A DNA stretch of 64,000 nucleotides from assembly GCA_045863395.1 (NCBI GenBank), contig BTVJ01000026.1, forward strand, positions 11,593 to 75,592, read 5' to 3'. The notes beneath the pieces were generated by a model that had not been told where the DNA came from, ran no database searches, and saw only the letters and a program-made list of their open reading frames with translations. Below, in pieces: positions 1,620 through 56,757 of this stretch. Source of the stretch: Myxococcales bacterium (GTDB lineage: Bacteria; Myxococcota_A; UBA9042; JABWCM01; BTVJ01). The first letter of the stretch is position 1. Each line of letters starts with the position of its first letter. The position numbers and the translations under genes were made by a program.

Positions 1620-1758
1620 AGGAATAACCTGACCCACCGAGAGCGCCGAATCGCCCCGCTGGCGGTCTGCCGAGACCGCAGGCAGGGTGGGGCCCTTCCA
1701 CGGTCTCGGCAGGCCGCCAGCGGGGATGCAGCGGCGCTCGAATGGACAGGTTATTCCT
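1620..1758 (+). ncRNA. Candidate structured RNA, or imperfect palindromic DNA element, of unknown class
   Basis: Three nested, perfectly complementary helices separated by asymmetric internal loops: 1620-1631 (AGGAATAACCTG) with 1747-1758; 1641-1648 (GAGCGCCG) with 1732-1739; 1654-1678 with 1701-1725 (25 bp including one G-U); apical loop 1679-1700. About 45 bp paired within 139 nt, in a 1.7 kb stretch without a convincing CDS. Strand is undetermined. Confidence 0.3.
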
Positions 1759-1860
1759 GTACGGGCCCTAAACACATCGGAGTGAGTTCGGCCCGCAGGT
1801 GCTATTTACAGAGGAGTAATTGAGATGAGGATGCAGTCCAGTGGCTCGACAGAGCCCCAA

Positions 1861-1870
1861 CCCCCCCCCC
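1861..1870. repeat. Homopolymeric C10 tract (preceded by CCCCAA) about 90 bp upstream of the subtilase-like gene
   Basis: Read directly: agagccccaa cccccccccc gacc. Confidence 0.9.
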
Positions 1871-1958
1871 GACCACCCGCCCCAGAGCATCTGGTTGCGC
1901 AGCGCAGCCGCCCTTCCGGCTTATCAGTGTAGCTGTTTCAGCGCTTCTCCTGTTTGAC

Positions 1959-3935
1959 GTGTCGGTCACCGTTCGAGCCGATGGATTGATGAACCCTTCC
2001 AGTTCCCCAACCCTGGAGTGGGGTGAAGGTGTGGCAAGCGACGGAGGAGGGCTCTACTCGACCTTCGATTCCTCCAGCCTGATGGACGCTCCCCCAAAAG
2101 ACGCATCCTACAATGCCTTTAAAGAGACACAGATTGAGATGGCAGGCATGGGTGAATCGCTCAATGTTCGAGTCTACGCGAAGCTTCTAGATACTCCACC
2201 CGACGAAGTCATTGGGGTCACACTTCTCCTGAAGGAAATTGACTTCGAGTGGGGTAGCTTCGCAGGGGCGGGAGCAGTTGCTCGACATGCTCTCGTCGCC
2301 TCGCGGAAAGCCCAGCTCCAGCCGAGCCAGTACTCTGTGATCAAGGAGCTCGTGAATATTGGTGCCATCGAAATTTCTCCGAACTGGCTCGTCAACCAGA
2401 TTGACGTACAGGTCCATGCGCTGGCTGCAATCGACCTGGCTGCAATCCCTGGAGTCGAAGGCACTCGCTTGAACGCCGATACGAACACCGGCCGAGCTTA
2501 CGGAGGCAGCGAGTCGCAGGACGGAACATTGATTGCCCAGTTCTACGCCCAGAGCCTGGACGGCCGATACGGAGGTCGATCAAACAGCAGGATCCGAGTA
2601 GGTGTAATTGAACCAGGGCCATTGGCGCGGTACCATGCAACCTGGGACTACTCGACAGGCACCGGCTCGCGTGTAACCCGCTACCGCGAGTGTACCGCCA
2701 GCGGGTGCATTGACTCACCCAACAACGCAACCGTGTCTTCGCATGGGACCTGGGTGTCATGGGTGGCAACCGGTAGCATCGAGGCCGGACAGGATCCCGA
2801 CTTCCCGGGAACCTATACAGTCGACCAACGCAACCGCAGTGGCCACCTCAAGGAGTCACTGCTGTACTACTATCAGGCAACCGAGAATTGTGCATCAGGG
2901 AAGCGGGCAATCGAGCAGGCGGTGCTCGACGGGATCGATGTCATCAACTTGTCGCTAGCGTGGGGCGGATCCGAGTCCAACTGCAACTCGGAATATGATT
3001 GCTCGGGACTGAATGCCGCCATTGCCACGGCCCTAGACAGCGGAATTCTGACAGTGGCCTGTGGTGGGAACGCTCCCGACACGTCCGTCTGCCACGTTTG
3101 GTACCCTGGTCTCAGGACCGAAACTGTGGCCGTTGTTGCGCTTCTCAGCGATCCCTCGACGAGCCCGTATGACAGCCTCGGTCTACGCCCCGACGCTTCC
3201 GCGGGAGGGCTTCCGATCAGAACTTTCTTGGGTGCCGGCACGACGACACCAGCCATCGACTTGGCTGCTCCCGGCACATTCACAATGTATGCAACCGTGG
3301 CTCCACACGCCAATGGCTCCAGCACGATTGGAGGATGCTCATTCGCGACGCCTGTCATCACTGCGTCTGCGGGCGCTCTTCGCAACGCGTTTGCAGTGAT
3401 TGGCTGGTCCAACACCAACGCGAAGATGCTCATGGTGAATCTATTGCTGCTCGGCGACGGCTGGAGCGGAAGCGGAGTCCCGGGGTCGTATCCGCCAACT
3501 ACAGTATCGAGCCGCAGTGGATTCGGCCGGGTCCGCGCGCACTGGCCAGACGACGAGAGCATGGCCGGCGATTGGGGCTGGGGCTGGCGTGCCTTCACGA
3601 TCTACGAGGGGCAGACGGTAACGTGGAACGTGGGTACCTCGGGCCCTGAGAGCACCAGCATCACGGAGTGGAAGTGGGCTACGCTCTGGTTCGAGCCCGA
3701 TCTGCAGAACGTCGCCGACATCGACTTCGAGGTATGGGACATGTGCGCGCCAGGAGGCCCTGTCATGCTCCACGCTGACTGGTCGCTGAGCTTGCGCTCT
3801 CGGTTCAACCTCCTCGGACCCAGCATTGGAGGGAAGTGTCTGCAAATGCGAGCATACGGCTACAGGGTTCCTGCACAAGGAAGAGTGATCTATAGTGCCG
3901 ACTACTACCATTCGGGCACTCCGTCTATGTACTAG
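1959..3935 (+). CDS. Subtilase-like (peptidase S8 family) protein without a signal peptide, with about 200 aa of N-terminal sequence of unknown function
   Basis: 658-aa ORF starting at GTG 1959 (first ATG at 1989). S8-like motifs in order: RVGVIEPG (Asp-region position, Glu in place of the usual Asp), SSHGTWVSWVATGS (His motif), INLSLAWGGS, VACGGNAPDTS (Asn motif), GGCSFATPVITASAGAL (Ser motif). No N-terminal hydrophobic signal. G+C visibly lower than the flanking genes. RBS not obvious. Confidence 0.75.
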   Translation: MSVTVRADGLMNPSSSPTLEWGEGVASDGGGLYSTFDSSSLMDAPPKDASYNAFKETQIEMAGMGESLNVRVYAKLLDTPPDEVIGVTLLLKEIDFEWGSFAGAGAVARHALVASRKAQLQPSQYSVIKELVNIGAIEISPNWLVNQIDVQVHALAAIDLAAIPGVEGTRLNADTNTGRAYGGSESQDGTLIAQFYAQSLDGRYGGRSNSRIRVGVIEPGPLARYHATWDYSTGTGSRVTRYRECTASGCIDSPNNATVSSHGTWVSWVATGSIEAGQDPDFPGTYTVDQRNRSGHLKESLLYYYQATENCASGKRAIEQAVLDGIDVINLSLAWGGSESNCNSEYDCSGLNAAIATALDSGILTVACGGNAPDTSVCHVWYPGLRTETVAVVALLSDPSTSPYDSLGLRPDASAGGLPIRTFLGAGTTTPAIDLAAPGTFTMYATVAPHANGSSTIGGCSFATPVITASAGALRNAFAVIGWSNTNAKMLMVNLLLLGDGWSGSGVPGSYPPTTVSSRSGFGRVRAHWPDDESMAGDWGWGWRAFTIYEGQTVTWNVGTSGPESTSITEWKWATLWFEPDLQNVADIDFEVWDMCAPGGPVMLHADWSLSLRSRFNLLGPSIGGKCLQMRAYGYRVPAQGRVIYSADYYHSGTPSMY

Positions 3936-4012
3936 TCTCGACTCGGTAACCCAGTGGAGAGGGACAGTTCAGGACGAGGTACGCGGCCTGGTGGTACCAG
4001 ACAGGAGAAGTC

Positions 4013-4738
4013 ATGAAGAGTGTGAGGCATCTCGTGTTGACGGTGCTGGCATTGGTCGCCTGTGACGGCGCTCCGGAGTCCAGCTCCGCCGACAAGTCCG
4101 CAGTGGCGGACGGTTTGGACGCGGGCGCCACCGGCTGCGACGTGTGTGTGGCGGCTGAGACCCTGAACCCGACTCTCGGTCCGTGCGCGTCAGGTACGCT
4201 GCCAACCACGGGAAGGTTGTACGACCAGGCTGCTGACTGCGTGTCGCCGGAGACCACCGTGCTGGCATGCTACCCCGATATAAGTCCCGACGCCTACGCT
4301 ACGCAGGGCAGTGGCTGCTACGTGCACGAGCCAACGGGCGTTGCCTTCATCGCCGTCTGGGACGGTCCGGAACTCTCCGGGGAGTACCATCGCTGCGACG
4401 AGAAGTATTGGCAGATCCGTGAGGCGGCCGCCGAGGCGGAGCCCTGCGTGGACGGTGCTCCCGCTCAAGCATGTGGGAGTCCCGACGGGGCCGGTGAGTG
4501 TGGTGCCGGCTGCACTCCGGTCTACGGCGCGCCGTGGAACGTGGGTGAGGGCTGCGCTCAGGGGAAGGTGGAGTTGGGCTGGTGTACCTATTTGTATAGC
4601 GACGCTCCTCCCCACTGGTGCGTGGTGGATGAAGCAACAGGTACTGTCTACCTAGGCGTCAACGGAGTGCCTCACGGCCACCGACAGTGCACGGAGGCGG
4701 AGCTACCGGCTGCCTCGGCGGTGCAGTGGTGTCCTTGA
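4013..4738 (+). CDS. Cys-rich lipoprotein, function unknown
   Basis: AGGAGA RBS 6 nt upstream of ATG. N-terminus MKSVRHLVLTVLALVAC has a signal peptide with lipobox L-V-A-C. Mature part has many Cys, probably disulfide-bonded. Confidence 0.7.
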   Translation: MKSVRHLVLTVLALVACDGAPESSSADKSAVADGLDAGATGCDVCVAAETLNPTLGPCASGTLPTTGRLYDQAADCVSPETTVLACYPDISPDAYATQGSGCYVHEPTGVAFIAVWDGPELSGEYHRCDEKYWQIREAAAEAEPCVDGAPAQACGSPDGAGECGAGCTPVYGAPWNVGEGCAQGKVELGWCTYLYSDAPPHWCVVDEATGTVYLGVNGVPHGHRQCTEAELPAASAVQWCP

Positions 4739-43843: not shown

Positions 43844-44469
43844 TGGACGGACAGAAGGACCAAGGCGCGGCGAGGACCCGCAAGCTGTTCGCGCTGGGCG
43901 TGTTCATGGTGCTCGTCGTGTTTGCGCTGTGGCGCATCCGCGCGTCCCTGGAGGAGCGCGGAGTCGACTCCAAGCTGCGGGCCCTGGCACCCCAGGTCGG
44001 CGCGGATCTGGTGCTCACGGACTTCGAGCCCGCGAAGCATGATCGCGCTCTGGAGCCTGCTCCCTGGGTCGAGGGTGGGCCGGTGCGGCTCTCGGACCAC
44101 GCGGGGAAGGTGCTCTTCCTCAACTTCTGGGCCTCCTACTGCGAGCCGTGCAAGCGGGAGCTGCCGTCCATGGCGCGCCTCGCCAAGGAGCTGGCCGGTG
44201 ACCGCTTCGTCATGGTGGCGGTGAGCTACGACGAGTCCTGGGACGCGGTGTCGAAGTTCCTCGAGCAGATCGGCGGTGTGCCCCAGAACATCGTGTTCGT
44301 GCGGGACCCCGCGGCGCAGGCGGACCCGCTTGGGACCCACTATGGCACCCAGAAGATCCCGGAGACCTACGTGATCCGGGACGGGCGCATCCTGTTTCGC
44401 TTCGTGAACGAGCGCAACTGGATCGACATGGCCATGGTCCGCTTCTTCCGCGCCCTGATCGATGGCTGA
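43843..44469 (+). CDS. TlpA-like thiol:disulfide oxidoreductase (thioredoxin fold, membrane-anchored)
   Basis: Start ATG 43843 (MDGQKD…); TM anchor LFALGVFMVLVVFALW; redox motif WASYCEPC. Confidence 0.8.
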   Translation: MDGQKDQGAARTRKLFALGVFMVLVVFALWRIRASLEERGVDSKLRALAPQVGADLVLTDFEPAKHDRALEPAPWVEGGPVRLSDHAGKVLFLNFWASYCEPCKRELPSMARLAKELAGDRFVMVAVSYDESWDAVSKFLEQIGGVPQNIVFVRDPAAQADPLGTHYGTQKIPETYVIRDGRILFRFVNERNWIDMAMVRFFRALIDG

Positions 44470-45367
44470 GTCTCCGCGGTGGCCGGTGCTTCTGGCCGGC
44501 GTCGTGTTTCTGGCGCTTGGCGGCGTCGCCGTCTGGGCGCTGTTCGACCGGCCACTGCCCGCCCCGGACTTCTCGACGACAGGGTGGCGGCCGGCGAGCG
44601 ATGAGGTCGCTGCGCAGGCTGCGGCGGACCGGGCGCTGCTCGCCCAGGGCGCCGAGGACCCGGAGCTGGATCGGGCCGTCGAGGAGTGGAACGTGGAGGA
44701 GCTGCGCACGGGGGGGCGCGGCATCGACGAGGGGATTCGCCGGGCCCAGACGCGCGTCGAGGAGGCGGCCTTGAGGGCGCTGTCCCGGGTGGGGCGGGAC
44801 GGCTACCGGGCGCTCGGGCTGGCGCACCGGGAGCGCTTTCTCGCTGCGATGGACGCGTACCTGGCGGCGGTGCGCGCGTCGGGGGAGCCGCTCACCGGCT
44901 GGGATGTCAGACACCCAGATCTCGCAGAGACTGGTGCGATGCGTCGCCTGCTCGGGACCTTCCTGCTCGACGCCCGTCGGACCGGCGTCGTCCGGGAGTC
45001 GGGCGAGGTCACCGAGGACGCGGCGACGGTCGTGCCGCTCCTGTTCATGATGCGGTGGGGGCTCTTCGTGGCGCAGGCCATGCCGGCCGAGGAGCTGCTG
45101 AGCACGTTCGAGCGCAAGACCTTGCTTGCGTGGAAGGCCTGGGCCAACCCGACGCTGAACATCAGCCGGCGCAGGGAGGTGCTCGCCCGCCTCGCCGCCA
45201 TGGACGCGCGCGCGCCGGTCCACCGCGTCCTTGCGCTGCACTACATCCGGGCGCAGGACTGGCCGTCCGCGGCGCGGGAGACGGTGCTCGCCATCCTGGA
45301 CGCCCCCGAGGACCGGACCTTGGCGGCCAACCTGGCGTGGCTCAATGAGCGACTGGAGGGGCGCTGA
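44462..45367 (+). CDS. Hypothetical membrane-anchored protein
   Basis: ATG 44462 overlaps the TlpA-like gene end; N-terminal TM (WPVLLAGVVFLALGGVAVWALF); no family recognised. Confidence 0.5.
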   Translation: MAESPRWPVLLAGVVFLALGGVAVWALFDRPLPAPDFSTTGWRPASDEVAAQAAADRALLAQGAEDPELDRAVEEWNVEELRTGGRGIDEGIRRAQTRVEEAALRALSRVGRDGYRALGLAHRERFLAAMDAYLAAVRASGEPLTGWDVRHPDLAETGAMRRLLGTFLLDARRTGVVRESGEVTEDAATVVPLLFMMRWGLFVAQAMPAEELLSTFERKTLLAWKAWANPTLNISRRREVLARLAAMDARAPVHRVLALHYIRAQDWPSAARETVLAILDAPEDRTLAANLAWLNERLEGR

Positions 45368-45454
45368 CCTCGTGAGGCGGGGGGCATGCGGGTGCGAGGG
45401 CTGAGCGGCGGGCGAGCGGCGGGCGTACCGGGCCTGCGAGATGAGATGAGAGCT

Positions 45455-45488
45455 GAGTATACCTGACCCCTAGAACGACCCCTAGAAC
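45455..45488 (+). repeat. GAGTAT-N3-TGACCCC motif followed by a 12-bp direct repeat x2 (GACCCCTAGAAC); the second copy contains the OMP gene stop codon
   Basis: agctGAGTATaccTGACCCCtagaacGACCCCTAGAACttcac; compare the related element at 55501-55603. Confidence 0.85.
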
Positions 45489-47059
45489 TTCACGCTCGCG
45501 AGCAGGCTCACTCCGAGACGGCTCGGATCCACGAACACGCGGGTGCCGATGCCGTTCTCGTCCTTGCGGATCTGGGCGCGGTCCGGGTCGTAGGTGTAGT
45601 CGACCTGGACCAGCGCCGCGAAGGTGCTCTCGTAGGTCCAGCGCAGGCCGCCGAGCGCGCTGATGATCGGCAGCGCGTCCTCTCCCTCCGGCAGGATGTC
45701 CCAGTCGCCGGGCTCCGTGCCGCGCACCACGACCTTCTGGATGCCCTGGCTTACCTTGGAGTTGTTCTGGCCGGCGGGCATGACGCCCCGGTAGGTGGCG
45801 GGGAGCTGGACCCCGATGCCCACGTAGGGGGTCAGGCCCAGCTCCGTGAACAGGTGGTCGACGGCGATGGTGCCCGAGACCTCGGGGGTGACCTCCGCAG
45901 CCTCCGGGAGCGCCGAGTAGGGGAAGTAGCCGGGCACGTTCGCCGTGATCCAGGTCATGTCGCGGAAGCCGCCGTCCAGGTGGATGCGGGTCTCCTTGAC
46001 CTTGACGCCCACCGACGCGAAGCTCGCCATGGCCAGCTCGGTCTTGGTCGAGCCGGTGAAGTCGAAGTCGGCGAGGGTCTGGGTCTGGAAGCCGAACTCC
46101 GCGGCGATGCGGTAGCTGACGTCGCCATCGTAGGGCTCCGACTCCGTCAGGTCGAAGCGGACGGGGTCCTCGCGGAACAGGTTGAGGTCGAGCCGCCGCC
46201 CCACGGGCGCCCCTCGCGAGAAGGACAACATGGCGCTGGCCCCACCGGCGACAATCGGCTTGCCGAGGACCTCCGCCTTGTTGTTGGTGCCCTTCTCGAA
46301 GACCCCGCCGTTGGCCTCGAGCCACAGGCCGTCCACGCCCAGCTCCACGCCCGCCCCGAAGAGGCCGCCGTAGAAGGTGCGCTCGACGAAGAGGGTCTCG
46401 TTGCCCTCCGAGTTGGCGAGCTTCACCTCGACCGCGCTCTTGATCAGCGCGGTCTTGAGGCCCGCGAAGGCGTAGAAGCCGCCGATGTCCACGCCCACCC
46501 GCGCCGCCGGCGCCGACGTGGTGCGGAAGTTGCGGGGGAACACGTCCGTGCCGCCCCAGGACAGCTCGTAGTGGAAGCCCATGCGCAGGCGGTCCGCGTC
46601 GACGGGGAACAGCTCGATGAAGGCGCTGTCGCCGATGCCTCGCTTGACCTTCTGGCCCGAGAGCAGCTCGCCCGTGGACCCCTGGTGCCGGTCCGGGTCG
46701 CGGTTCCAGAGGAAGTTGAGGCGCATGTATGACGCGTCGTCTCGGATCGTGCCCTTGGCGATGTCGATCTTCAGGTTGATCGCGGCCTCCGGAAGGAAGG
46801 CCTCCGTCAGGTCCAGGGCTTTGTAGAGGCCGATGTGCATGAAGGTGTCGTAGCGGTCCGGCAGCAGACGGTCGATGCTCGGGTCCGGCGTGCCACCGAT
46901 GTAGATGTCCGGGCTCGACTTGCGGTCCTCGCCGGCTCCCCGCAGCACGTTGTCGTCGGAGAACGGGAAGCTGATCTTCGCGTCCAGGTACTCGCCCGCC
47001 ATCGCGGGGGTGGCCATCGCGCCGAGGAGCAGGGCCAGGGTCGTCACGCTACGCTTCAT
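45482..47059 (-). CDS. Outer-membrane beta-barrel protein, function unknown
   Basis: Start ATG 47059 with signal peptide MKRSVTTLALLLGAMATPAMAGE; alternating amphipathic strands; C-terminal …LLASVKF (terminal Phe typical of OMPs). Confidence 0.7.
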   Translation of the reverse strand: MKRSVTTLALLLGAMATPAMAGEYLDAKISFPFSDDNVLRGAGEDRKSSPDIYIGGTPDPSIDRLLPDRYDTFMHIGLYKALDLTEAFLPEAAINLKIDIAKGTIRDDASYMRLNFLWNRDPDRHQGSTGELLSGQKVKRGIGDSAFIELFPVDADRLRMGFHYELSWGGTDVFPRNFRTTSAPAARVGVDIGGFYAFAGLKTALIKSAVEVKLANSEGNETLFVERTFYGGLFGAGVELGVDGLWLEANGGVFEKGTNNKAEVLGKPIVAGGASAMLSFSRGAPVGRRLDLNLFREDPVRFDLTESEPYDGDVSYRIAAEFGFQTQTLADFDFTGSTKTELAMASFASVGVKVKETRIHLDGGFRDMTWITANVPGYFPYSALPEAAEVTPEVSGTIAVDHLFTELGLTPYVGIGVQLPATYRGVMPAGQNNSKVSQGIQKVVVRGTEPGDWDILPEGEDALPIISALGGLRWTYESTFAALVQVDYTYDPDRAQIRKDENGIGTRVFVDPSRLGVSLLASVKF

Positions 47060-48686
47060 CGGTGGTCCCGTCACAGTCGTCGTCCACGCCATTGCCCGGC
47101 TTCTCCGCCGCGCCGGGGTGGACGCCCGGGTTGTTGTCGTTGCAGTCGCCCTGGTCGCCGGTCACGCCGTCGCCGTCGTTGTCGAGGGTCGGGTCCAGCA
47201 CGACGTCGCCGTCGTAGCGTGGGTCCACCACCCAGAACTGGAGGTCGCACTTGGTCTCGTCGGAGCTCTCTCCGCACAGGTAGATGTGCCGCAGCGAGCC
47301 GGTCATCGAGGAGACGCGGCGCGGGGGGCACACGTACTGGAGGAAGCCCTGCTCGGTCGTCTCCTTGGTGCACACGCCGTTCTTGTCCGGCTGCCCCAGG
47401 TAGTCCATGGACAGCGGCAGGAACTTCTCGGCGAGGCCCGTGGAGCCGTAGATCTTCTTCTTTCCGCCGGTCACGCCCGACCACTGGGAGTACTCGAAGT
47501 AGCCCTCCAGGTCGGCGCAATAGGGGTCGTCCTGGCACTCGCCCCGGCAGGTGTTCTCGTCGCCCTTGTCGATGAGGCCGTTGTTGTTGCGGTCGCAGGC
47601 GATGAACCGGGTCGCGACCTCCACGTCGCTGAACCGCACCAGGTTGGACTCCAGGGCCTCCAGATAGCGGCTGTTGGCGTACACGTTGGTCAGGTACTCG
47701 ACCTGGTTCGCCACCAGCTCGCTCTTCAGGTCGGCCGTGACGGCAATCGGGGCTGGAGGCTCCGCGTCGACGTCGATGCCCGGGGTCTTCGGGTTGCAGG
47801 TGTCGCTTCCCTCCCAGAGGTCGTCGTAGCTCGGGAAGGTGAGCTGCGTCATGCCCACGTGCTCGTCCACGGCTCCCGAGACCTGGCAGATGATGTCGCC
47901 GTACTCGATGAAGCGGGGCTTGGAGTAGGTGAACACGAACAGGCCGTTGAAGTAGCGGTCCTGTGCCTGATCGTCCAGGTCCACCACGTAGAAGCCGTTG
48001 GCCACCACGTTCACCACGACGAGGCGCCCCGCGTCCACGACGACCTGCTGGCCCTCCAGCGGGGAGGTGTGCAGCTTGCTCGTGAGCTGGATGTCGCGGA
48101 TGCGCGGGTTCTGGAACCACAGGGTCTCGGTCGTCCCGGTGGCGAACGTCGCCTTGGCCTCCTGGTCGTCGTCCACCGACAGGCAGCCCGGGTCTGCGAG
48201 GTCCACGAGGCCGTTTCCGTCGTTGTCCAGCCCGTCGTTGCACTGGCCGTACTTCGCCGCCTTGGGGAAGAAGCCGTCCTGCTCGATCCAGACGTGGGAC
48301 TCGCCGATGGCGCGGTTCACGAAGATCTCCAGGCCCTTGGCCTTGCCGCCCTTCACGAGGTGCCAGGACGTGGACGGCGCCACCCGCCCCGGGGTGATCC
48401 GCGCCCGCACCATGCCAGTGAACGGGAAGTGCTTGCCGTCGCGCCCCATGGCCGCCACGTCGACCACGACCCTCACGTGGCACTCGCCGTCGACACAGAC
48501 CTCGCCGTCCTCGCAGTCCGGGTCGCCGCTGCAGGGCTTGCCGCTGACGAACGGGAGGCGGTCCTTGGCGGTGCCGGCGGTGCCGGGAGTCAGGGACACC
48601 TGAAAGGACTGGAGCCCCTGGTCCAGGGCGTACTCGCTGGTGCACCCGGCGAGCAGCGCGAGCGCGACGGTGATGGAGCGTGCCAC
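47049..48686 (-). CDS. Lipoprotein with C-terminal DGDG/DDDC putative metal-binding motif
   Basis: GTG start 48686, 1 nt after the upstream gene stop; MARSITVALALLAGC (lipobox L-A-G-C); C-terminus DGDGVTGDQGDCNDNNPGVHPGAAEKPGNGVDDDCDGTTDEA. 3' end overlaps the OMP gene start by about 11 nt. Confidence 0.7.
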   Translation of the reverse strand: MARSITVALALLAGCTSEYALDQGLQSFQVSLTPGTAGTAKDRLPFVSGKPCSGDPDCEDGEVCVDGECHVRVVVDVAAMGRDGKHFPFTGMVRARITPGRVAPSTSWHLVKGGKAKGLEIFVNRAIGESHVWIEQDGFFPKAAKYGQCNDGLDNDGNGLVDLADPGCLSVDDDQEAKATFATGTTETLWFQNPRIRDIQLTSKLHTSPLEGQQVVVDAGRLVVVNVVANGFYVVDLDDQAQDRYFNGLFVFTYSKPRFIEYGDIICQVSGAVDEHVGMTQLTFPSYDDLWEGSDTCNPKTPGIDVDAEPPAPIAVTADLKSELVANQVEYLTNVYANSRYLEALESNLVRFSDVEVATRFIACDRNNNGLIDKGDENTCRGECQDDPYCADLEGYFEYSQWSGVTGGKKKIYGSTGLAEKFLPLSMDYLGQPDKNGVCTKETTEQGFLQYVCPPRRVSSMTGSLRHIYLCGESSDETKCDLQFWVVDPRYDGDVVLDPTLDNDGDGVTGDQGDCNDNNPGVHPGAAEKPGNGVDDDCDGTTDEA

Positions 48687-48687
48687 G

Positions 48688-51318
48688 TCAGCCCTCCGGC
48701 TCGTCCGGGTCGAGGTCGGGAGGCAGGTCCTCCAGGTTGGGCGGGAGGATGCGGCTGATCCGCGCGTCCGACTCGGCGCGCGGGCAGGGGAGCGTCGTGC
48801 ACTCGGTGTGCGCCTGCCACTCCACGTCCAGGTAGCACGCGGTCTCCCGGTCCGTCAGCGTGTAGCAGTCCCGGGGCATGCACCTCCCCTCGAAGCAGAG
48901 GCTGTAGGCGGGGCAGTCCTCGTTGCCGTCGCACAGCGCCCGGCAGCGCCCCTGCACGCACTGGGAGACCGGCGCGACGCAGAGGCCCCTTGCGCACACG
49001 TCGCCGCCTCCACAGTGCGCGTCCTCGCTGCACGGAGCGCAGCGCCCCTTGGCGCCCGGCTCGGCGCACCAGCCGTGGACGCACGCCTGCCCCGCGCCGC
49101 AGCCCTTCGTGGTGGTGCACTTGGTGCGCTTCGGCTCGCAGAAGCCGTTCCTGCACAGGGCGTCGAGCCCCTTGGCCACGCAGTCGGCGTTCTGCTTGCA
49201 GGTCGGCAGCGTGCCGAAGCAGGCGCGCACGCTGTCGGTACACTCGCCGTCCGCCTCACACGGGGTGGCGGTCGCCGGCAGACAGAACCCGCTGGAGTCG
49301 GTCTCGGCGAGCTTCACGCAGGCGTTCTGGCCCTTGGCGGCCTTGCTGGCGTGGCAGTCGCCGTCGCCCTGGCAGCGGTTGCGGCACCGGCCGAGCACAC
49401 AGGTGTAGGCGGGGGTCACGCAGACGCCCTGAAAACACTCCTGGCCGTCGCCGCACTCGAGGGAGTGGGTGCACGCCTTGCACTTGCCCCCGGCGCAGGC
49501 CGCGTCGAGGCGGTAGCAGTCCCCGTCGCCCTTGCACTGGCCGTCGTCCACCGCGCAGTGGTAGGGCGTCGTCAGCTCGCCGGGCGTCGTCTCGGCGATG
49601 TGCTCGCAGAACTGCCCCCGGTACTTGACCAGCGACTCCATGCAGGCGCCGTAGGTCGTACACCCCTCGAGCTGCACCTGGCCGTCCACGCGGCAGTCGT
49701 CGATGCAGCGCTGGGAGCGGATGATCTCCTCCTGCACCGCGTCGCGCAGCGGCACCCCCGAGTCCACCTGGGTGTTGTTGATCTTGAGCACCGTGAAGCC
49801 CGACCCGCCCCCGGCGATGTAGTTGTTGGTGGCCATCTCGTAGACGCCGTAGGGGTTGATGGGCGTCTCCTGGCACAGCGTCTTGTCCTTGATGTTGGAG
49901 TCACCGCAGTTGGTGATCACGACGTTCTCGGCGCGTGGCGGGCACTCGTCGCCGCAGTTGTCGCCCTCCTTCGGGAAGGTGCAGTTCATGGTGAAGCGCA
50001 GGCCCGCCACCTGGACCTGCGTGATGCAGCCGCGCCCCGCGCTGCGCCGCGTGGTGTAGTCCAGCAGGTCCTGGATGTCCTTGCCGCTCATGTACATGGT
50101 CGTGATCGTGTTCTCGAAGGGGAACACGTTGAAGAGGTCGTCCATGGTGATGGGGCCGGGGAAGATGTCGGTGCGGATTCCGAGCGTGTTCGTCAGCCCG
50201 AAGTCGGCCCAGGCGTGCTTGCGGATGGCCTCGGCCACGAAGTTGCCGAGGGGGGCGTCTCCGCCGTCGAAGCCGAAGCGGCGGATGTGGCGGTCCGCGA
50301 AGCCGTAGACGCTGGTCAGGTCGAAGATCTGGTTCATCTTCAGCCGGTACGGCTCCAGGAGGTCGAGCATGACCGGATCCTCGGGCACCGAGCTGTCGAT
50401 GGGGAAGATGGCGTAGTCGTGGTTGACCACCTCGCCGTCCCGGACGACGACGTCCAGGCGCGCGACGAACTTGGCGAAGGCGCCCGGGTGGGTCAGGATC
50501 ACGCTGCGGCCGGCCTTGTCCTTGATGACCTTCGGCGGGTTGAGGACGATGTGCAGGTGTCCGCCGAGGATGATGTCGAGGCCCTCGGTGTGCTGGATGA
50601 TCTCCTCGTCCTCGCCGAGGCCCGCGTGGCTGACGGCGACGATCAGATCCACCTGGGGGCGGAGCACGTTGATCCAGTCCTGCACGGTCTGGACGATGTC
50701 CAGCGGGACGATCTTGAGGCTGTTGCCGACTTCGGTCACCGACGAGATGGACGAAAAGTTGGCGATGCCGATGATCGCGATCTTCAGGCCGTCCTTGTTG
50801 ACGATCTCGACCGGGCGCACCAGGTCGTTCAGGGGGTTCCCCTTGATGAACAAGTAGTTGGCGGCGATCACCGGGTACGTGGCCCACGCCTTGAGCTGCT
50901 TCGCGTAGTTCGTGAGCCCCTCGTCGAACTCGTGGTTGCCGATGACCACGGCGTCCGGTTGGAGCTGGCTCATGACCCGCTGCTCCACCTCGCCCTTGAA
51001 GGCATTGAAGATCGGTGCGCCCTGGAAACAGTCGCCGCTGTCGACGAGGACGACGCGGCCCCCCCGCGCGCGCTCCCGCTTGATGACGTGCGCCATGCGC
51101 GCCGCCCCGCCGAAGGGCTCGTTGTCCTGGAGCAGGCCCATGCCCTCGTCACCAGCGCCGACCTGAGCGCGGTAGGGAATCAGGCGAGAGTGGATGTCGG
51201 AGGTGTGCAGGAAGGTGACGCGGATATCCTGGCCCGCGAGGGTCGGGTTCTCGTGTCGCTCCGTACAGGCCGCGAGAAGGGTTGTGATGGCTATAACCAG
51301 GCGAAACCATTGAGTCAT
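48688..51318 (-). CDS. Bifunctional metallophosphatase/5'-nucleotidase-like lipoprotein with long C-terminal Cys-rich domain
   Basis: GAGGGA RBS before ATG 51318; MTQWFRLVIAITTLLAAC (lipobox); metallophosphatase motifs FLHTSDIHSRL, VDSGDCFQGAP, GNHEFD, SHAGLGEDEE, GGHLH; 5'-nucleotidase C-domain; then about 350 aa with more than 50 Cys. Confidence 0.85.
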   Translation of the reverse strand: MTQWFRLVIAITTLLAACTERHENPTLAGQDIRVTFLHTSDIHSRLIPYRAQVGAGDEGMGLLQDNEPFGGAARMAHVIKRERARGGRVVLVDSGDCFQGAPIFNAFKGEVEQRVMSQLQPDAVVIGNHEFDEGLTNYAKQLKAWATYPVIAANYLFIKGNPLNDLVRPVEIVNKDGLKIAIIGIANFSSISSVTEVGNSLKIVPLDIVQTVQDWINVLRPQVDLIVAVSHAGLGEDEEIIQHTEGLDIILGGHLHIVLNPPKVIKDKAGRSVILTHPGAFAKFVARLDVVVRDGEVVNHDYAIFPIDSSVPEDPVMLDLLEPYRLKMNQIFDLTSVYGFADRHIRRFGFDGGDAPLGNFVAEAIRKHAWADFGLTNTLGIRTDIFPGPITMDDLFNVFPFENTITTMYMSGKDIQDLLDYTTRRSAGRGCITQVQVAGLRFTMNCTFPKEGDNCGDECPPRAENVVITNCGDSNIKDKTLCQETPINPYGVYEMATNNYIAGGGSGFTVLKINNTQVDSGVPLRDAVQEEIIRSQRCIDDCRVDGQVQLEGCTTYGACMESLVKYRGQFCEHIAETTPGELTTPYHCAVDDGQCKGDGDCYRLDAACAGGKCKACTHSLECGDGQECFQGVCVTPAYTCVLGRCRNRCQGDGDCHASKAAKGQNACVKLAETDSSGFCLPATATPCEADGECTDSVRACFGTLPTCKQNADCVAKGLDALCRNGFCEPKRTKCTTTKGCGAGQACVHGWCAEPGAKGRCAPCSEDAHCGGGDVCARGLCVAPVSQCVQGRCRALCDGNEDCPAYSLCFEGRCMPRDCYTLTDRETACYLDVEWQAHTECTTLPCPRAESDARISRILPPNLEDLPPDLDPDEPEG

Positions 51319-51541
51319 CGCGCACCGTCCCTCGTTGGCCCGCCGGCCCGGCGCAACAGGTATCACACGCCCACCCCCCGATCAAGCCGTGGCGCCCAAG
51401 GGGGTGAACGTAACCCGCGCGCAGATCGCGGGATGTGGGGCCGGGCGACGTGGGTTGAACCGGCGTTCGCGCTCTGGAATACTGTCGCGCGGTCCCGCGC
51501 GGGGACCTGCCGCCCACGCCCCAACTCTCCTCGGAGGCCTC

Positions 51542-52123
51542 ATGCTCCCCCGCAGAGCCATACTCTTGATGCTGCTGCTGCTTGCAGCGCCCGCGCGCGC
51601 CACCGTCGTCCTCGAGGTAGGCCTCGACGACATGAGCCGCACCTCGGACGTGATCTTCCACGGCGTCGTGACCCGGACCGACGTCGTTGCCGTCGGCGGG
51701 GACGCCACGCGACTCGTAACCGACGTCACCTTCTCGCTGACCGAGGTGCTCAAGGGGCGGGCGCTCGTGCCGGAGCCGAGCTTCACGCTCCGGCTGATCG
51801 GGGGGCAACGGGGCGGGCTCGAGCTGCGCATCCCTGGGATGCCGCGCTTCAGTGAAGGGGACGAGGTCGTCATGTTCCTGGAGCGCACCGAGGGAGGCTT
51901 CGCCATCACGGGTCTGTCCCAGGGGCGCTTCGAGGTGCGCGTCGATGCTGAGACCGGCGAGCGGGTGGTCGACCGGTCGCTCGGAAGCGTGGGGGTGGCG
52001 CGGTTCGGTGCGGGCGGCGAGTTCGAGATGACAGAGGCGCCGGCCAGCCTGGTGCGCTACCCCCTTGCGAACCTGCTCGACGAGGTGCGCCACTGGATCG
52101 CCGAGGACGGGGTGGCCCGATGA
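51542..52123 (+). CDS. Secreted hypothetical protein
   Basis: GGAGG RBS before ATG 51542; signal peptide MLPRRAILLMLLLLAAPARA; stop overlaps the next ATG. Confidence 0.5.
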   Translation: MLPRRAILLMLLLLAAPARATVVLEVGLDDMSRTSDVIFHGVVTRTDVVAVGGDATRLVTDVTFSLTEVLKGRALVPEPSFTLRLIGGQRGGLELRIPGMPRFSEGDEVVMFLERTEGGFAITGLSQGRFEVRVDAETGERVVDRSLGSVGVARFGAGGEFEMTEAPASLVRYPLANLLDEVRHWIAEDGVAR

Positions 52124-54222
52124 AGCGCGCCCTCCTGATCGTGTCGGGCCTGCTGCTCTGGGCGCCTGCTGCCTCCGCGTCCAGCATCGCCCTGTCGGAC
52201 TACTACAACAAGCTCGTCCGGTGGACCATCTCGACGGTCCCGTACCACCTGAACCCCGCCGGCTCCGACGACATCGGGGACGGCAGCGACATCCAGGCCA
52301 TCAAGGAGTCGTTCAACGACTGGATCACGCTCCCGTGCTCGTCGCTGAAGATCAACCACCTGGGGGCCGCCGGCAACACGAGCCTGCTGACGGGTGCTCA
52401 GGCCAACGGCAAGAACGAGCTCCACTTCGTGGAGAACTCGGCCTGGACCTATGGCAAGTACGTGCTGGGCGTGACCGCGCCGCTCTACGACTACAACGGC
52501 AAGATCTGGGAGTCGGACATCGCGTTCAACGGCTACCTCCAGTCCTGGTCCACGACGGGCGGGTGGGGCAAGACCGACGTGAAGGCCATCGCGATCCACG
52601 AGATCGGGCACTTCTTCGGGATCCAGCACAACCTGGGCGGCTACTCCTCCTCGTCGCCGCCGACCATGGCGCCGTCGTGGGACGGGACGCTGAAGCAGCG
52701 GACCCTGGAGCAGGACGACAAGAACTCGTTCTGCTTCCTCTACAACAACGCCAACTACACCTGCGGCACCGACGCGGACTGTCCCTACGTGGTGGGCCAC
52801 AAGTCCAACGGGCAGGAGTACTACACAGGGAAGTACGTGTGCAGCGGGGGCAAGTGCCAGCTCGGGTCGGGCTCGGGGACGGCCGGCGGCACCAAGGGGC
52901 TCGGCGAGAAGTGCAGCACGAACCAGGACTGCAAGTCACCCTACTTCTGTCAGCCCGTGTGGGGGCAGGGGAGCATGTGCTCGCAGGTGTGCAACCCGAG
53001 CTCCAGCACGAGCTGCCCGGGCGGCTTCGTGTGCGTCCCCTACGAGGGTCAGAGCTCGGGGGCGTGCATCCCCGGCGGGCCGACCACCAAGAGCGACGGG
53101 GCCGCATGTGAGGCGTCGAGCGAGTGCAAGTCGGGTTACTGCGGGACCAACCCCGTGGACGGCTCGTTGGAGTGCCGCCAGACCTGCACCGTCGGCGAGG
53201 CGGGGCACTGCACCAAGAGCCAGGTGTGCGTACCGTCCCACGGCAGCGCGTCCTCGGCGGGAGCCTGCTGGGGTGTGGATGACGTGGGGGCGGTCAACCG
53301 CGCTGACACGGATGGCTGCGACTTCGACTGGCAGTGCAAGAGCGGGCGATGCGTGCTCGACCAGGCGAGCGGGGAGCAGTTCTGCCGCGCGGCGTGCAGC
53401 CCGGCGCACCCGAGCTGCGCCGCCGGGACGTGGTGCGTCGAGCTGTCGCCGCAGGTGGGCGCCTGCATCCCTGGTTCTCCGCCTCCGCCCCCCGAGAAGC
53501 TCGAGGACGGGGCGATCTGCGCTACGAACGAGGAGTGCAAGAGCGGCGTCTGCGCCAAGCCCGCCGGGGGCACACGCACCGTGTGCGTCACGCCTTGCGC
53601 GCTCGCGGACGACGCGTGCCCCGCAGGTCAGGTGTGCGTCGGCTCTGGCGACGCGGTCTGGGGCGCTTGCCTGCCGGCGGCGCTCCCCGCGGGCGCGTCC
53701 TGTGGGGGACCTCAGGACTGCAGCAGCGGGCTGTGTCTCGATTCGGGCAGCGGGTCCGTCTGCGTCCAGGCCTGCTCGGAAGGGGGTGTCTGCCCCTGCG
53801 GGACGAGCTGCCAGTTCGCGGTAGGTGGCGACGTCTGCGTGCCCGACGCCACGGCGCCGACCTGCGCGGCGGCGGGCGTGCAGTGCGCGAGCAACCTGGA
53901 GTGCGGGAGCGGGCGGTGCCAGGGCGGGGAGTGCAGCGGCGAGGCTGGTGGCTCGGGTGGCTCGGGTGGGTCGGGTGGGTCGGATGCTGCGAGTGGCCCT
54001 GGCGGCGGCTCCGGCAGTGGCTCCGGTGATGCCGCGGGCGGAGCAGGCGGCGACGCAGCGGGCGGCGGAGTCGAGGCGCCAGGAGGCGTCGGCGGGGAGG
54101 CAGACCTCAGCGGCAGCGCAGCCGGCGGCGGCTGCGGGGCGACCAGCGGCCCGGGCGGCGGCCTGCTGGCGATGCTCGCGTTGCTCGGTTGGCTGACCGT
54201 TCGCCGGCGCGTGGCCGCCTGA
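52120..54222 (+). CDS. Secreted matrixin-like zinc metalloprotease (M10 family) with Cys-rich repeat region and MYXO-CTERM-like sorting tail
   Basis: Signal peptide MKRALLIVSGLLLWAPAASA; zinc motif HEIGHFFGIQH (HExxHxxGxxH); repeated Cys-rich units (CxSGxC…); Gly/Ser-rich spacer; C-terminus GGGCGATSGPGGGLLAMLALLGWLTVRRRVAA. Confidence 0.85.
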   Translation: MKRALLIVSGLLLWAPAASASSIALSDYYNKLVRWTISTVPYHLNPAGSDDIGDGSDIQAIKESFNDWITLPCSSLKINHLGAAGNTSLLTGAQANGKNELHFVENSAWTYGKYVLGVTAPLYDYNGKIWESDIAFNGYLQSWSTTGGWGKTDVKAIAIHEIGHFFGIQHNLGGYSSSSPPTMAPSWDGTLKQRTLEQDDKNSFCFLYNNANYTCGTDADCPYVVGHKSNGQEYYTGKYVCSGGKCQLGSGSGTAGGTKGLGEKCSTNQDCKSPYFCQPVWGQGSMCSQVCNPSSSTSCPGGFVCVPYEGQSSGACIPGGPTTKSDGAACEASSECKSGYCGTNPVDGSLECRQTCTVGEAGHCTKSQVCVPSHGSASSAGACWGVDDVGAVNRADTDGCDFDWQCKSGRCVLDQASGEQFCRAACSPAHPSCAAGTWCVELSPQVGACIPGSPPPPPEKLEDGAICATNEECKSGVCAKPAGGTRTVCVTPCALADDACPAGQVCVGSGDAVWGACLPAALPAGASCGGPQDCSSGLCLDSGSGSVCVQACSEGGVCPCGTSCQFAVGGDVCVPDATAPTCAAAGVQCASNLECGSGRCQGGECSGEAGGSGGSGGSGGSDAASGPGGGSGSGSGDAAGGAGGDAAGGGVEAPGGVGGEADLSGSAAGGGCGATSGPGGGLLAMLALLGWLTVRRRVAA

Positions 54223-54368
54223 CCTCCGTGTGAGCGCCGGGGGGGGCGCGGGGGGAGAGCTTCACCCTGGACTTGGGGCGGCATGGACTTCGACGCTCGA
54301 CCGCGGTAAGACTGGGGCGCCCGCTGGCGCTCCACCCTTACCGGGGCGCGGCGCGGCGGAGGTCCTTC

Positions 54369-55382
54369 ATGCAGAGCGCGTCCGAGCGAGACAGTATCCT
54401 CCGGTGGTCGCCAGGGTCGCCTCGTGGCCACGTGGAGTCCACCTTCCTCAAGCTGAACCTGGTGTCGCGGCGGCAGGCGCTCTGGCTCAAGTTCACCGTC
54501 TTGGAGCCACCTCCTGGTCACGGCGACGCGCAGGCCGCCGTGTGGGCGATCTTCTTCGACGTGGACCACCCGGAGCGCCGGCGCGCCGTCAAGCGCGTGA
54601 TGCCCGCGTCCGACATCTCCTGGCAGGCTGACCGATTCCTGCTGCGCTTCGGCGACTGCGAGATGGCCCGCGGTCGCAGCCATGGGAGCGTCTCTGGGGC
54701 GGGGAGCATCGCCTGGGACCTGACGTGGACCACGGGCGAGGAGAGCTTCCGGCACTTTCCTCACGACCGCATGTACGAGCTGCCCCTCCCTCGCTCCAAG
54801 GCTCTCAGCCCCACCATCGACGCGCGCTTCCAGGGCACGGTGACCGTCGACGGTGAGCGCATCGAGGTGGTCGAGGCGCCCGGGATGCACGGCCACAACT
54901 GGGGGGAGAACCACGCGCGGGAGTGGGTCTGGGCCCACTGCAACGCGTTCGCGGAGGACGGCGTCGTCTTCGAGGGACTCAGCGCGCGCGTCGCGCTGGG
55001 TCCCATCACGACACCAGCGCTGACCATACTGCACCTCAGGACCCCAGTGGAGACGGTGACGTTCAACCGGCTGCGGGATCTCGTAGCCAGCGCGAGCCGC
55101 CAGCACGGGCTGTACTGGAGCTTCGAGGCGACCGGGGGGCCCTGGCGCCTTCGTGGCGTCGTCCACGGGAGCCCTGACCGCTTCGTGGGCGTCGACTACC
55201 ACGACCCGGACGGCACAGTGCACCACTGCCTGAACTCCAAGGTCGCCGTCGCGGAGCTGACCCTGCTGCGTCGTCACGGCGCGACATGGTCCCCTTACGG
55301 CCAGTGGCGCAGCGACGACTCCTGCGCGCTGGAGATCGGGACCTGCGGCGACACCCACGGCGTCCCCATCCTGCTCCCCTGA
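54369..55382 (+). CDS. Hypothetical protein
   Basis: ATG 54369 (MQSASERDSILRW…); balanced composition; no family recognised with confidence. Confidence 0.5.
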   Translation: MQSASERDSILRWSPGSPRGHVESTFLKLNLVSRRQALWLKFTVLEPPPGHGDAQAAVWAIFFDVDHPERRRAVKRVMPASDISWQADRFLLRFGDCEMARGRSHGSVSGAGSIAWDLTWTTGEESFRHFPHDRMYELPLPRSKALSPTIDARFQGTVTVDGERIEVVEAPGMHGHNWGENHAREWVWAHCNAFAEDGVVFEGLSARVALGPITTPALTILHLRTPVETVTFNRLRDLVASASRQHGLYWSFEATGGPWRLRGVVHGSPDRFVGVDYHDPDGTVHHCLNSKVAVAELTLLRRHGATWSPYGQWRSDDSCALEIGTCGDTHGVPILLP

Positions 55383-55500
55383 ACGGTCGGCGCTGTGAGA
55401 ACCGGTGAGCGCGGCGCACTCGGCTCCGCAGGGAGGCCGCGGAGTGCGCGGTGGTCGGGGCTTGCCCAGCGGGGTCCCTGCTCGCGAGGATAGGAAATAT

Positions 55501-55603
55501 GAGTATGCTTGACCCCCAGTTTTGACCCCCAGTTTTGACCCCCAGTTTGACCCCCAGTTTGACCCCCAGTTTGACCCCCGGTTCAGTTTTCGACCCCCAT
55601 TTT
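55501..55603 (+). repeat. GAGTAT-N3-TGACCCC motif followed by short tandem repeats: GACCCCCAGTTTT x2, GACCCCCAGTTT x3, then 2 degenerate copies, in a lower-G+C intergenic region
   Basis: Units at 55511-55523, 55524-55536, 55537-55548, 55549-55560, 55561-55572, degenerate 55573-55603. Confidence 0.9.
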
Positions 55604-55857
55604 GGCGTTGCGTCACATGGTAGGTGTATTCGCGAGCTCGAACTGCATGGTCAGGTGTTACCCAATGTCTGGAATATTGGTCGTATCTTCGGTTGTGCCT
55701 TCGGCGTAGTGGAAGCGCCCGGTGGGCTCGCGGACTGAATTGGTCCTTGTTTGGCCCGCGATGTGGCGGTACGCTTCGAAGAGCAGCGCCACGTCGGCGA
55801 GGACGTGAGCCGAGCGGCGCCCCGACTGTCCTCGGAAGGGACATTCAAGGAGGTTGC

Positions 55858-56757
55858 ATGAGCCGGACCTCGGTAGCGCTCGCTCTCGTCGCCTTCGTGT
55901 CGAGCACCGCGCGTGCAGACGACCCTCCGTTCGTCCCCTGGACCTCGCTTCTGCCGGGCCTCTCCGCGGGCTACGACCCGTCGAGCGAGAACCTCTGCAA
56001 GAAGGGGCACCCGCAGTGTGTCAGCTCGGTGATCCACGAGATGGACAAGCGGTTCACCAAGCTGGCGAAGGTGTGCGACCACGACGCCCTGTTCGCCCTC
56101 GTCTATCTGCGGACCACGGAGGAGTACCAGCGGGCGAGCCTGGAGCCCGGCTTCTTCTCGGACCCGGCCTTCCTCAACCACGAGGCCGCGGTCTTCGCTG
56201 CATACTACTTCGACGCGTGGGACGCCTGGCACGGCGGCTTCAAGAGCGCCGTGCCGGCAGCCTGGAGCATCGCCTTCGACGCAGCCGGCAAGAAGCAGGT
56301 GAAGGGGCTCGGGAACATCTTCCTCGGCATGAACGCGCACATCCAGCGTGACCTCCCGTTCGTGCTCGACGCCATCGGGCTCGTGAAGCCGGACGGGAGC
56401 AGCCGCAAGCCGGACCACGACAAGGTGAACGAGTTCCTCAACCGAGTCGCCGACGAGGCCCTGCCCGAGGCCGCACGCCGCTTCGACCCGAGCATCCAAG
56501 GCACCTCCGCCCCGGGAATCCTCCTCGACGACTTCCTGAACTTTCAGGTGGTTGCCGCGTGGAGGGAGCTTGCCTGGCGACACGCCGAGCTGCTGGCCGA
56601 GGCGCCGACCCCGGCCGCCCGGGCCCTGGTGGCAGCGGAGATCGAGGCGTACGCCGCCAGCCAGGCCACCCTGCTGCGCCTGGCCTTCGGCTACGGCCTG
56701 CTGGGAGGCAGCACGTCACGGGACGCGTGGTGCGCGGTGCACAACTTTGACCCCTGA
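55858..56757 (+). CDS. Secreted hypothetical protein
   Basis: AAGGAGG RBS before ATG 55858; signal peptide MSRTSVALALVAFVSSTARA; the ORF-track start 55624 lies in the repeat-containing intergenic region. Confidence 0.6.
   Translation: MSRTSVALALVAFVSSTARADDPPFVPWTSLLPGLSAGYDPSSENLCKKGHPQCVSSVIHEMDKRFTKLAKVCDHDALFALVYLRTTEEYQRASLEPGFFSDPAFLNHEAAVFAAYYFDAWDAWHGGFKSAVPAAWSIAFDAAGKKQVKGLGNIFLGMNAHIQRDLPFVLDAIGLVKPDGSSRKPDHDKVNEFLNRVADEALPEAARRFDPSIQGTSAPGILLDDFLNFQVVAAWRELAWRHAELLAEAPTPAARALVAAEIEAYAASQATLLRLAFGYGLLGGSTSRDAWCAVHNFDP

Follow-up and report, generated by a model that had tools for sequence, protein, structure and literature searches.

Two short sequences, locus A and locus B, flank a 10-kb gene block in the 64-kb stretch of DNA analysed here (the window). 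Locus A (45455-45488) reads GAGTATACCTGACCCC from 45455 followed by two copies of GACCCCTAGAAC at 45465-45488, and its coordinates and sequence were exact on re-reading of the window. TRF detects the same + strand duplication with a period of 12, 2.0 copies and 100% match. Ahead of it on the + strand lies a leader patch, GCGAG ATGAGATGAGAGCTGAGTATACC T (45436-45464), recognized by alignment with locus B, with a strain variant of locus B (B') and with the sister-lineage loci. The patch is composed of short GAGAT-like repeats, near which an 11-nt repeat is found at 45398-45425. Locus A starts 88 nt past the stop of a called + strand gene of 301 aa (44462-45367; function not assigned), convergent with a - strand gene (45482-47059) for a secreted protein of 525 aa ending in VKF, as called on identical Logan contigs. 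The stop codon of the latter falls within the repeat, as the second copy of GACCCCTAGAAC contains its Phe codon and TAG stop (45482-45484). No promoter that the locus could control lies between these convergent gene ends. The label "OMP" given to the secreted protein in the original prediction is plausible from its signal peptide and C-terminal Phe, but it has no Pfam match.

Locus B (55501-55603), likewise exact in coordinates and sequence, reads GAGTATGCTTGACCCC from 55501 and starts 119 nt past the stop of a + strand Tocopherol_cycl-like gene (54369-55382; 337 aa; Pfam PF14249 on the called gene). Its leader patch, GCGAG GATAGGAAATATGAGTATGCT T (55484-55510, + strand), was identified from the sequence and from alignments with locus A and the sister loci. 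Five perfect GACCCCCAGTTT(T) units follow on the + strand (55511-55572), starting with GACCCCC at 55511, 55524, 55537, 55549 and 55561, the first two of 13 nt and the other three of 12 nt. Two degenerate + strand units, GACCCCCGGTTCAGTTTTC (55573-55591) and GACCCCCATTTT (55592-55603), complete the array, as seen in the sequence and by allele comparison. TRF reports a period of 12, 6.1 copies, 96% match and a score of 125. The gap has a G+C content of 53-58% vs 69% for the whole window. Downstream, the DUF5995 gene (55858-56757, + strand; Pfam PF19458, E = 2e-53) is the first of a DUF5995 - HATPase_c - response-regulator cluster. Its upstream region (55607-55857, + strand), with the array at its upstream edge, carries the palindrome GGACTGAATTGGTCC followed by TTGTTT (55732-55752) and differs from the sister lineage at 7 of 251 positions (2.8%). 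Searches beyond the window gained 88 nt on the right; an exact-sequence look-up of the protein at the left end returned no record.

The original prediction held that A and B share the motif GAGTAT-N3-TGACCCC in the same orientation, each ending in a tandem array, and this is how the window reads. TGAGTAT occurs twice in the 64 kb, on either strand only at A and B and each time 3 nt before TGACCCC, among a total of five GAGTAT. There are two exact matches to GAGTATNNNTGACCCC in the window, and the 20-mer TGAGTATACTTGACCCCCAG matches both loci at ≤2 mismatches with 0 matches expected (100 shuffles). The homology extends over about 36 nt, GCGAG-N20-23-TGACCCCYAG, and A and B' are identical at 31 of 36 positions. 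Their local alignment score of 40 compares with maxima of 20 among 6362 window tiles and 25 among 20,000 shuffles. The likeness is beyond chance, and the two loci are truly homologous. Within each unit only the first 9 nt (GACCCCYAG) are common to both loci, and at A as at B the exact point where the homology ends falls inside the repeated unit. The proposed repeat family has at least two homologous members, but the 64-kb window holds no third copy, even at ≤4 mismatches in 17 nt.

Among contigs of the same species, 99.7-100% identical elsewhere, locus B has alleles of 3, 4 or 7 units and is a variable-number tandem repeat. Other strains carry one perfect GACCCCCAGTTT(T) unit (L067, L068 and L071) or none (L069 and L072), with units spaced by 12, 13, 17 or 19 nt across alleles. 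The degenerate units are found in all same-species alleles and are older copies. At locus A the unit count is two in 7/7 same-species contigs. In a sister lineage of about 94% nucleotide identity both loci lie at orthologous positions with the same architecture, one unit being present at A and two at B. GCGAG-N20-23-TGACCCC is kept there, but GAGTAT, which the original prediction had placed in the leader, is lineage-specific and absent. Conservation in related genomes extends to the 94% sister lineage, but nothing can be aligned at 72-82% protein identity; with the 82% relative, intergenic alignment at A and B shows no similarity past the coding part. The 10-kb gene block between the loci is conserved in relatives without the repeats, and A and B coincide with synteny breakpoints, with four relatives having four different neighbours beside the OMP-like gene.

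The leaders diverge much more than their surroundings. Between the A leader and its sister orthologue 6 of 20 positions differ (30%), against 3.4% in the adjacent gene; overall, divergence from the sister lineage is 30-45% in the leader patch vs 3-7% in flanking genes. Of 20 positions, 16 are identical between the two paralogous leaders of the source lineage, vs 14 and 11 between the orthologous pairs. In other strains the B leader is GATATGAGATATGAGTAT(A/G)CT, and 3/3 substitutions shift the B leader towards A. The leader of B' is itself a short tandem repeat, (GATATGA)x2.

We lean towards reading A and B as paralogous intergenic patches of low complexity that evolve fast and gain or lose length by slippage, with possible short-tract conversion between them. 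Under this scenario, both are copies of one short patch, non-coding and of low complexity, made up of GCGAG, about 20 nt of GAGAT/GATATGA-like repeats and TGACCCCYAG, and they sit in rapidly evolving intergenic DNA on either side of the conserved gene block. The arrays would arise by replication slippage (slipped-strand mispairing), with a unit made of the last 9 nt of the patch plus the next 3-4 nt. At A this would leave a stable duplication of two copies, and at B a variable-number tandem repeat. The leader patch would mutate far faster than its surroundings, and the leaders of the source lineage were apparently homogenized between A and B by short-tract conversion. TRF also picks out about ten further perfect two-copy duplications (9-12 nt) elsewhere in the window, which makes this kind of event a common one in this genome. 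Both loci probably lack a selected function, an argument from absence.

An unlikely reading, though one worth weighing, treats the B array as a site where Rho loads (rut), which would end the Tocopherol_cycl-like transcript and insulate the DUF5995 operon. The array lies on the same strand as the Tocopherol_cycl-like gene, 128 nt past its stop, and RNA from its + strand would be rich in C, poor in G and free of structure, with a CC dimer recurring every 12-13 nt. In 95 nt it has 37 C and 15 G, its C-minus-G skew is within the top 1.6% of 80-nt windows, and it folds worse than shuffles (z +2.7). The 12-13 nt spacing fits the descriptors of Rho-dependent terminators, [(YC)N9-13]n, a C>G bubble and low structure, which derive from E. 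coli and Salmonella Rho (PMC6144790). In these respects the B array resembles known rut sites. However, it differs from them in that its perfect repeat is hypervariable and does not keep a constant length: strains have from 3 to 7 units and the sister lineage has 2, so that a full six-site rut is not maintained. It differs also in that the shared motif occurs at A without rut properties on the same strand. On the transcribed strand downstream of a gene, the rut features, taken over about 60-80 nt, are seen in the window allele of B and not on the + strand of A, and short B alleles have 2-3 units. The + strand of locus A has hardly any skew (C-G = +5, 27th percentile) and too little length, and therefore the shared motif cannot act as rut at both loci; a rut-like stretch at A is on the opposite strand.

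The original prediction also raised a protein-binding array. The TGACCCC(C) units would then be putative regulator sites, and B would be an operator array upstream of the DUF5995 - kinase - response-regulator operon, acting as a contingency locus in which unit number tunes expression; we regard this as unlikely. The regularly spaced direct repeats that lie 255 nt before the DUF5995 start, edging a constrained region, are consistent with this, as is the presence of the TGACCCC core at A and B in both lineages. However, conservation of a 7-mer is expected anyway at 6% divergence, and the A motif lies between convergent gene ends without a promoter to control. The proposal is weakened further because unit number and spacing at B (12, 13, 17 and 19 nt) vary freely among strains, and because a relative's 74%-identical DUF5995 gene has no GACCCC array upstream, though the palindrome and hexamer GGAC..GTCC TTGTTT, together with GTACGCT, recur there. 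A promoter scan of the A and B regions gave no promoter-like site.

Some observations weigh against the slippage and conversion reading. Random slippage does not predict units straddling the exact end of the homology at both loci, which may point to a specific DNA transaction occurring at TGACCCC. The anchors available for conversion measure 5 and 7 nt, shorter than ordinary RecA recombination needs, and the conversion signal depends on few sites (16 vs 14 of 20). TGACCCC may be the site of such a transaction, as a putative nickase, recombinase or template-switch hotspot possibly with further copies in the genome, but we hold this to be improbable. Such a transaction would duplicate the junction of patch and flank and transfer copies of the 20-nt leader from one locus to the other, which would explain both the straddling units and the closer likeness of paralogues in one lineage to each other than to orthologues.

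A related proposal, in which the shared patch would be what is left of a mobile element's end, or a site at TGACCCC where a recombinase or nickase acts and repeated cleavage and repair duplicate the junction, is similarly doubtful. The position of the tandem unit across the homology end at both loci and their location at synteny breakpoints agree with it. In one population an element with 24-nt terminal inverted repeats, unrelated to the patch, is inserted in the CTAG of an A unit (45482-45485); the window and viral contigs contain no match to its 24-nt ends, nor do plasmids, whose best hits are chance matches within coding regions. Against the proposal, there is no nearby transposase or integrase, both copies are orthologously placed in the sister lineage and all strains carry the leaders of both loci. 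The miniature mobile element of the original prediction fares no better: the 64-kb window has no reverse-strand match to the motif or inverted partner near A or B, and no flanking (target) duplication occurs at either locus other than the tandem unit. The patch is at the same positions in all same-species and sister contigs, without presence/absence polymorphism, and the orthologous placement in the 94%-identical sister means that the loci have not moved recently. By BLAST, the B region has no match among plasmids. In 185,579 species genomes (the source genome being absent) the pattern GAGTATNNNTGACCCCN{6,7}GACCCC has two matches, after an RTX-like gene in Enhygromyxa salina and in a Clostridia coding region, both probably due to chance. 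TGAGTATRCYTGACCCC has 48 matches in JGI metagenomes and two in viral contigs, all with unrelated flanks and no arrays. None of the pattern matches in these three collections is a related sequence, and neither A nor B itself came up in the genome or metagenome scans, so the source genome is in neither collection. Two further ideas were rejected. The loci do not look like att sites of an integrated island, as the 10-kb block has no integrase and is conserved in relatives lacking the repeats, and a Tn3-like or tRNA-fragment reading of the reverse strand was dropped as it had no supporting match.

A very improbable reading takes B as the variable N-terminal region of a candidate small protein gene running from an ATG at 55499 to a TGA at 55736-55738; its 12-nt units would encode (DPQF)n and its 13-nt units would turn the gene off. 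A GAGGA lies 9 nt ahead of the ATG, and the frame is open in L067, L069 and the sister alleles, with one TGA interrupting the window allele. The tail of the frame is well conserved (two synonymous changes and one non-synonymous), but this follows from the DUF5995 upstream element, shared with a distant relative that lacks the reading-frame context. Third-position G+C is about 55% (hand count) vs 82-98% for the window's real genes, gene calling places no gene there on any of the contigs, and HMMER against 1.84 billion proteins matched only spurious repeat translations.

A small-RNA or terminator module, also proposed in the original prediction, finds no support: both strands of both loci fold worse than shuffles (z +2.0 to +3.3), Rfam gave nothing for A or B at the gathering score and only noise at E > 0.2 in permissive scans, and neither motif has a G+C-rich hairpin with a T-run, the only hairpin candidate near B (55732-55746) being 130 nt past the array and not above chance.

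Among known repeat classes, the mycobacterial MIRU-VNTRs are intergenic head-to-tail repeats with units of 40-100 nt whose copy number varies between close strains. Their loci share related units, a unit may overlap the stop of an adjacent gene, and replication slippage is the accepted mechanism. A and B resemble them in being head-to-tail, intergenic and strain-variable, with related units and a stop-codon overlap at A. They differ in having units of 12-13 nt, in numbering two known loci, in sharing only the first 9 nt of the unit and in the shared non-repeated leader that precedes each array. Like MITEs and solo IS terminal repeats, A and B are short non-coding repeats at separate intergenic sites that are synteny breakpoints; unlike them, they have neither terminal inverted repeats nor target-site duplication, show no insertion polymorphism or increase in copy number, and keep orthologous positions across the 94%-identity split. 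Simple-sequence contingency loci are the phase-variable repeats of Neisseria and Haemophilus. As in these, the repeat number at B varies between strains beside or inside a possible reading frame or promoter, but 12-nt units keep the frame, no evident switching of a linked surface or restriction gene is seen, and there is no known on/off phenotype.

If A and B are indeed slippage-prone intergenic patches, the practical value is modest. The finding would be weightier if termination or expression of the adjacent DUF5995/two-component operon were tuned by the number of units, or if the complete genome held many copies evolving in concert. Strains of this uncultured myxobacterium of anammox reactors (Myxococcota JABWCM01) could readily be typed by locus B. 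The repeat arrays would also be the reason short-read assemblies break at A and B; several short-read contigs end exactly at the arrays.

Loci A and B lie 10 kb apart, and in each a leader patch is followed by tandem units. At locus A, the leader GAGTATACCTGACCCC starts at 45455 on the plus strand and two copies of GACCCCTAGAAC occupy 45465-45488 (TRF period 12, 100% match). The locus lies between the convergent ends of a 301-aa gene (plus strand) and the 525-aa OMP-like gene (minus strand, 45482-47059), whose Phe codon and TAG stop (45482-45484) fall within the second unit. At locus B, the leader GAGTATGCTTGACCCC starts at 55501 on the plus strand and the array extends to 55603; GACCCCCAGTTT(T) is present in five perfect copies, two being 13 nt long and three 12 nt, and two degenerate units complete the array. 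The gap holding it has a G+C content of 53-58%, versus 69% for the window, and is flanked by plus-strand genes, a Tocopherol_cycl-like gene and then a DUF5995 - HATPase_c - response-regulator cluster. Coordinates, units, orientation and repeats are exactly as in the original prediction, as are the overlap with the OMP-like stop and the lower G+C around B.

The relation between A and B is real and non-random: they are two related intergenic repeats, both hypervariable, and belong to a well-known kind. The 64 kb has just two copies of TGAGTAT, counting both strands, and each lies 3 nt ahead of TGACCCC. A 20-mer across the motif matched both loci with at most two mismatches and had no such match in 100 shuffles. 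While an 18/20 match alone is unremarkable for 64 kb, these two share their orientation and each runs right up to the first unit of a tandem array. Given this rarity, the shuffle test and the shared orientation and abutment, the likeness is beyond chance. Aligned with B', the B leader variant of other strains of the species, A has 31/36 identities with one 2-nt gap (local score 40 versus a background maximum of 20-25).

Contigs of a sister lineage from other samples, about 94% identical in DNA, keep the gene order at both loci. Their locus A reads GCGAG CGAACATGAGAACTGAGTCAGCT TGACCCCTAGAAC, with one unit, and their locus B GCGAGG AGCTGTGAAGTGCGCATGCC TGACCCCCAATTT TGACCCCCAGTTGG, with two. 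The presence of both loci shows that GCGAG-N20-23-TGACCCC plus units is older than the split and has not changed position, while GAGTAT belongs to the source lineage alone. Between the lineages the leader patch, 20 nt long, differs by 30-45%; divergence is 3-7% in the flanking genes, 2.8% downstream of B (55607-55857), 13% in the intergenic DNA upstream of B and about 25% or more in that upstream of A. When alignments are anchored on TGACCCC, the source-lineage paralogues share 16/20 patch positions and the orthologue pairs 14/20 and 11/20. These identities, with few sites behind them, fit the pattern of concerted evolution.

Locus B is a variable-number repeat within the species. Short-read contigs from other samples match the window at 99.7-100% of DNA positions, with no difference in the encoded proteins; among them L067, L068 and L071 have four units and L069 and L072 have three, versus seven in the window. 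Of the B units, the longer GACCCCCAGTTCAGTTT and GACCCCCGGTTCAGTTTTC are older than the rest. Locus A has two units in 7/7 same-species contigs, and several contigs terminate inside B or A arrays. The other strains have GATATGAGATATGAGTAT(A/G)CT as their B leader, which differs from that of the window by three substitutions, each of them toward A, and contains a short repeat, (GATATGA)x2. The A leader likewise consists of short repeats (GAGAT), and A also has an 11-nt repeat at 45398-45425. Since 9-12 nt sequences are often found duplicated in the window, the leaders are made of short repeats and B units change between near-identical strains, slippage is the simplest account. We therefore lean, if only slightly, toward paralogous slippage-prone patches with occasional copying and no demonstrated function. 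Replication slippage and point mutation would drive the evolution of two low-complexity intergenic patches, and short tracts would occasionally be copied between them; we infer both slippage and conversion from sequence comparison. Two small features are left over, the junction-straddling units and the signs of concerted evolution. Separately, SNP clusters between otherwise 99.7%-identical strains at 52324-52488 and 44382-44713 (in the matrixin-like gene, for example, 165 nt contain 11 SNPs) point to recombination tracts of imported DNA.

Alternatively, the B array on the plus strand may be a Rho loading site. With 37 C and 15 G in 95 nt, no structure, CC dimers at 12-13 nt and a same-strand gene before it, the array fits the descriptors of such sites (PMC6144790). 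However, its length is not kept between strains, and A on the same strand lacks these properties. The 3' flank of the OMP-like mRNA (45372-45452, minus strand; 44 C, 16 G, unstructured) ranks in the top 0.05% of 80-nt stretches for C>G skew and is a candidate Rho loading site of its own.

That the units form a regulator-binding array is a weakened possibility, as their spacing varies and no GACCCC array precedes a 74%-identical DUF5995 gene. What does recur there (L089, about 890-930) is GGAC-N7-GTCC, then TTGTTT and GTACGCT, likely a conserved regulatory element of the operon; in the window it is a palindrome at 55732-55746, within the little-diverged 55607-55857 stretch upstream of DUF5995. 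An ORF from ATG 55499 to TGA 55736-55738 crosses the B array; three alleles keep it open, and one TGA breaks it in the window allele. It was discounted as a gene: its codon usage is atypical, third-position G+C, counted from the sequence, is about 55% versus 82-98% for genes in the window, no contig calls it, and its database matches are spurious repeat translations. The palindrome element, shared with the 74%-identical gene where the array is absent, better explains the conservation of the ORF tail.

There is a low probability that A and B are a relic element end or recombination site; in its favor, the homology boundary falls inside a unit at each locus, and A and B are both rearrangement hotspots. 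The 10-kb block between them (OMP-like gene, MopE-motif lipoprotein, 5'-nucleotidase, 193-aa gene, matrixin-like protease and Tocopherol_cycl-like gene) has the same order in two relatives labelled Myxococcota JABWCM01 with contigs covering it whole (protein identity 82% and 72%), and its OMP side is on a third relative's contig. Outside the block each relative has different genes, placing A and B at synteny breakpoints. The neighbor of the OMP-like gene differs among the source, L008, L009 and L088 (in the latter three acetyltransferase/Wzy; spermine-synthase-like, RRM and DUF6335; MazE/PIN toxin-antitoxin and helicase); its 3' flank is a rearrangement hotspot in the clade. In these relatives, intergenic DNA at A/B is unalignable and the motif absent. 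The predicted motif family holds as a related pair within the window whose architecture the sister lineage shares; GAGTAT is missing from that lineage, and nothing of the family is found at 72-82% protein identity. Scans of genome and metagenome collections, which lack the source genome, returned neither A nor B. Island att sites were rejected, as no integrase is encoded in the block and relatives without the repeats still have it.

The other proposed identities fell away. A small-RNA or terminator module is contradicted by RNA folds whose stability at both loci falls below that of shuffled controls (z +2.0 to +3.3), the lack of a hairpin plus T-run at either motif and no Rfam match at A or B; promoter-like sites were likewise absent from both. 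A miniature mobile element is not supported: neither locus has an inverted partner or a target duplication, and there is no transposase and no polymorphism for insertion.

Two samples' contigs (L079, L080) break at the same point in a response-regulator coding region, at about position 64088 and so shortly past the end of the window, probably a paralogue-induced assembly break; the motif is absent there. In Enhygromyxa salina (NZ_JMCC02000003.1; L010 1827-1854, minus strand), GAGTATTAGTGACCCCAACATAGACCCCTCTCTAGAAGCCCTAGAAG sits between two tandem paralogues, immediately downstream of an RTX-like calcium-binding gene; its likeness to locus A exceeds the demands of the search pattern, yet is probably chance. 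The contig break at A in sample SRR36015677 is explained by an inserted element, unrelated to A, in the CTAG of the second unit (45482-45485). Its terminal inverted repeats are imperfect and span 24 nt or more (TAGGGCGTCGC[CG/AT]AAGTAATGATG), its ends lie on L062 (2986-3009) and L004 (10036-10059), and CTAG (or TA) is duplicated. The window has 13 CTAG sites in 64 kb versus about 180 expected from rough base composition, two in the A units and five in a low-G+C island (2187-4652). The low-G+C stretch at about 1240-3940, with no high-GC3 frame and a 658-aa Peptidase_S8 (subtilase) ORF at 1959-3935, is probably acquired DNA.
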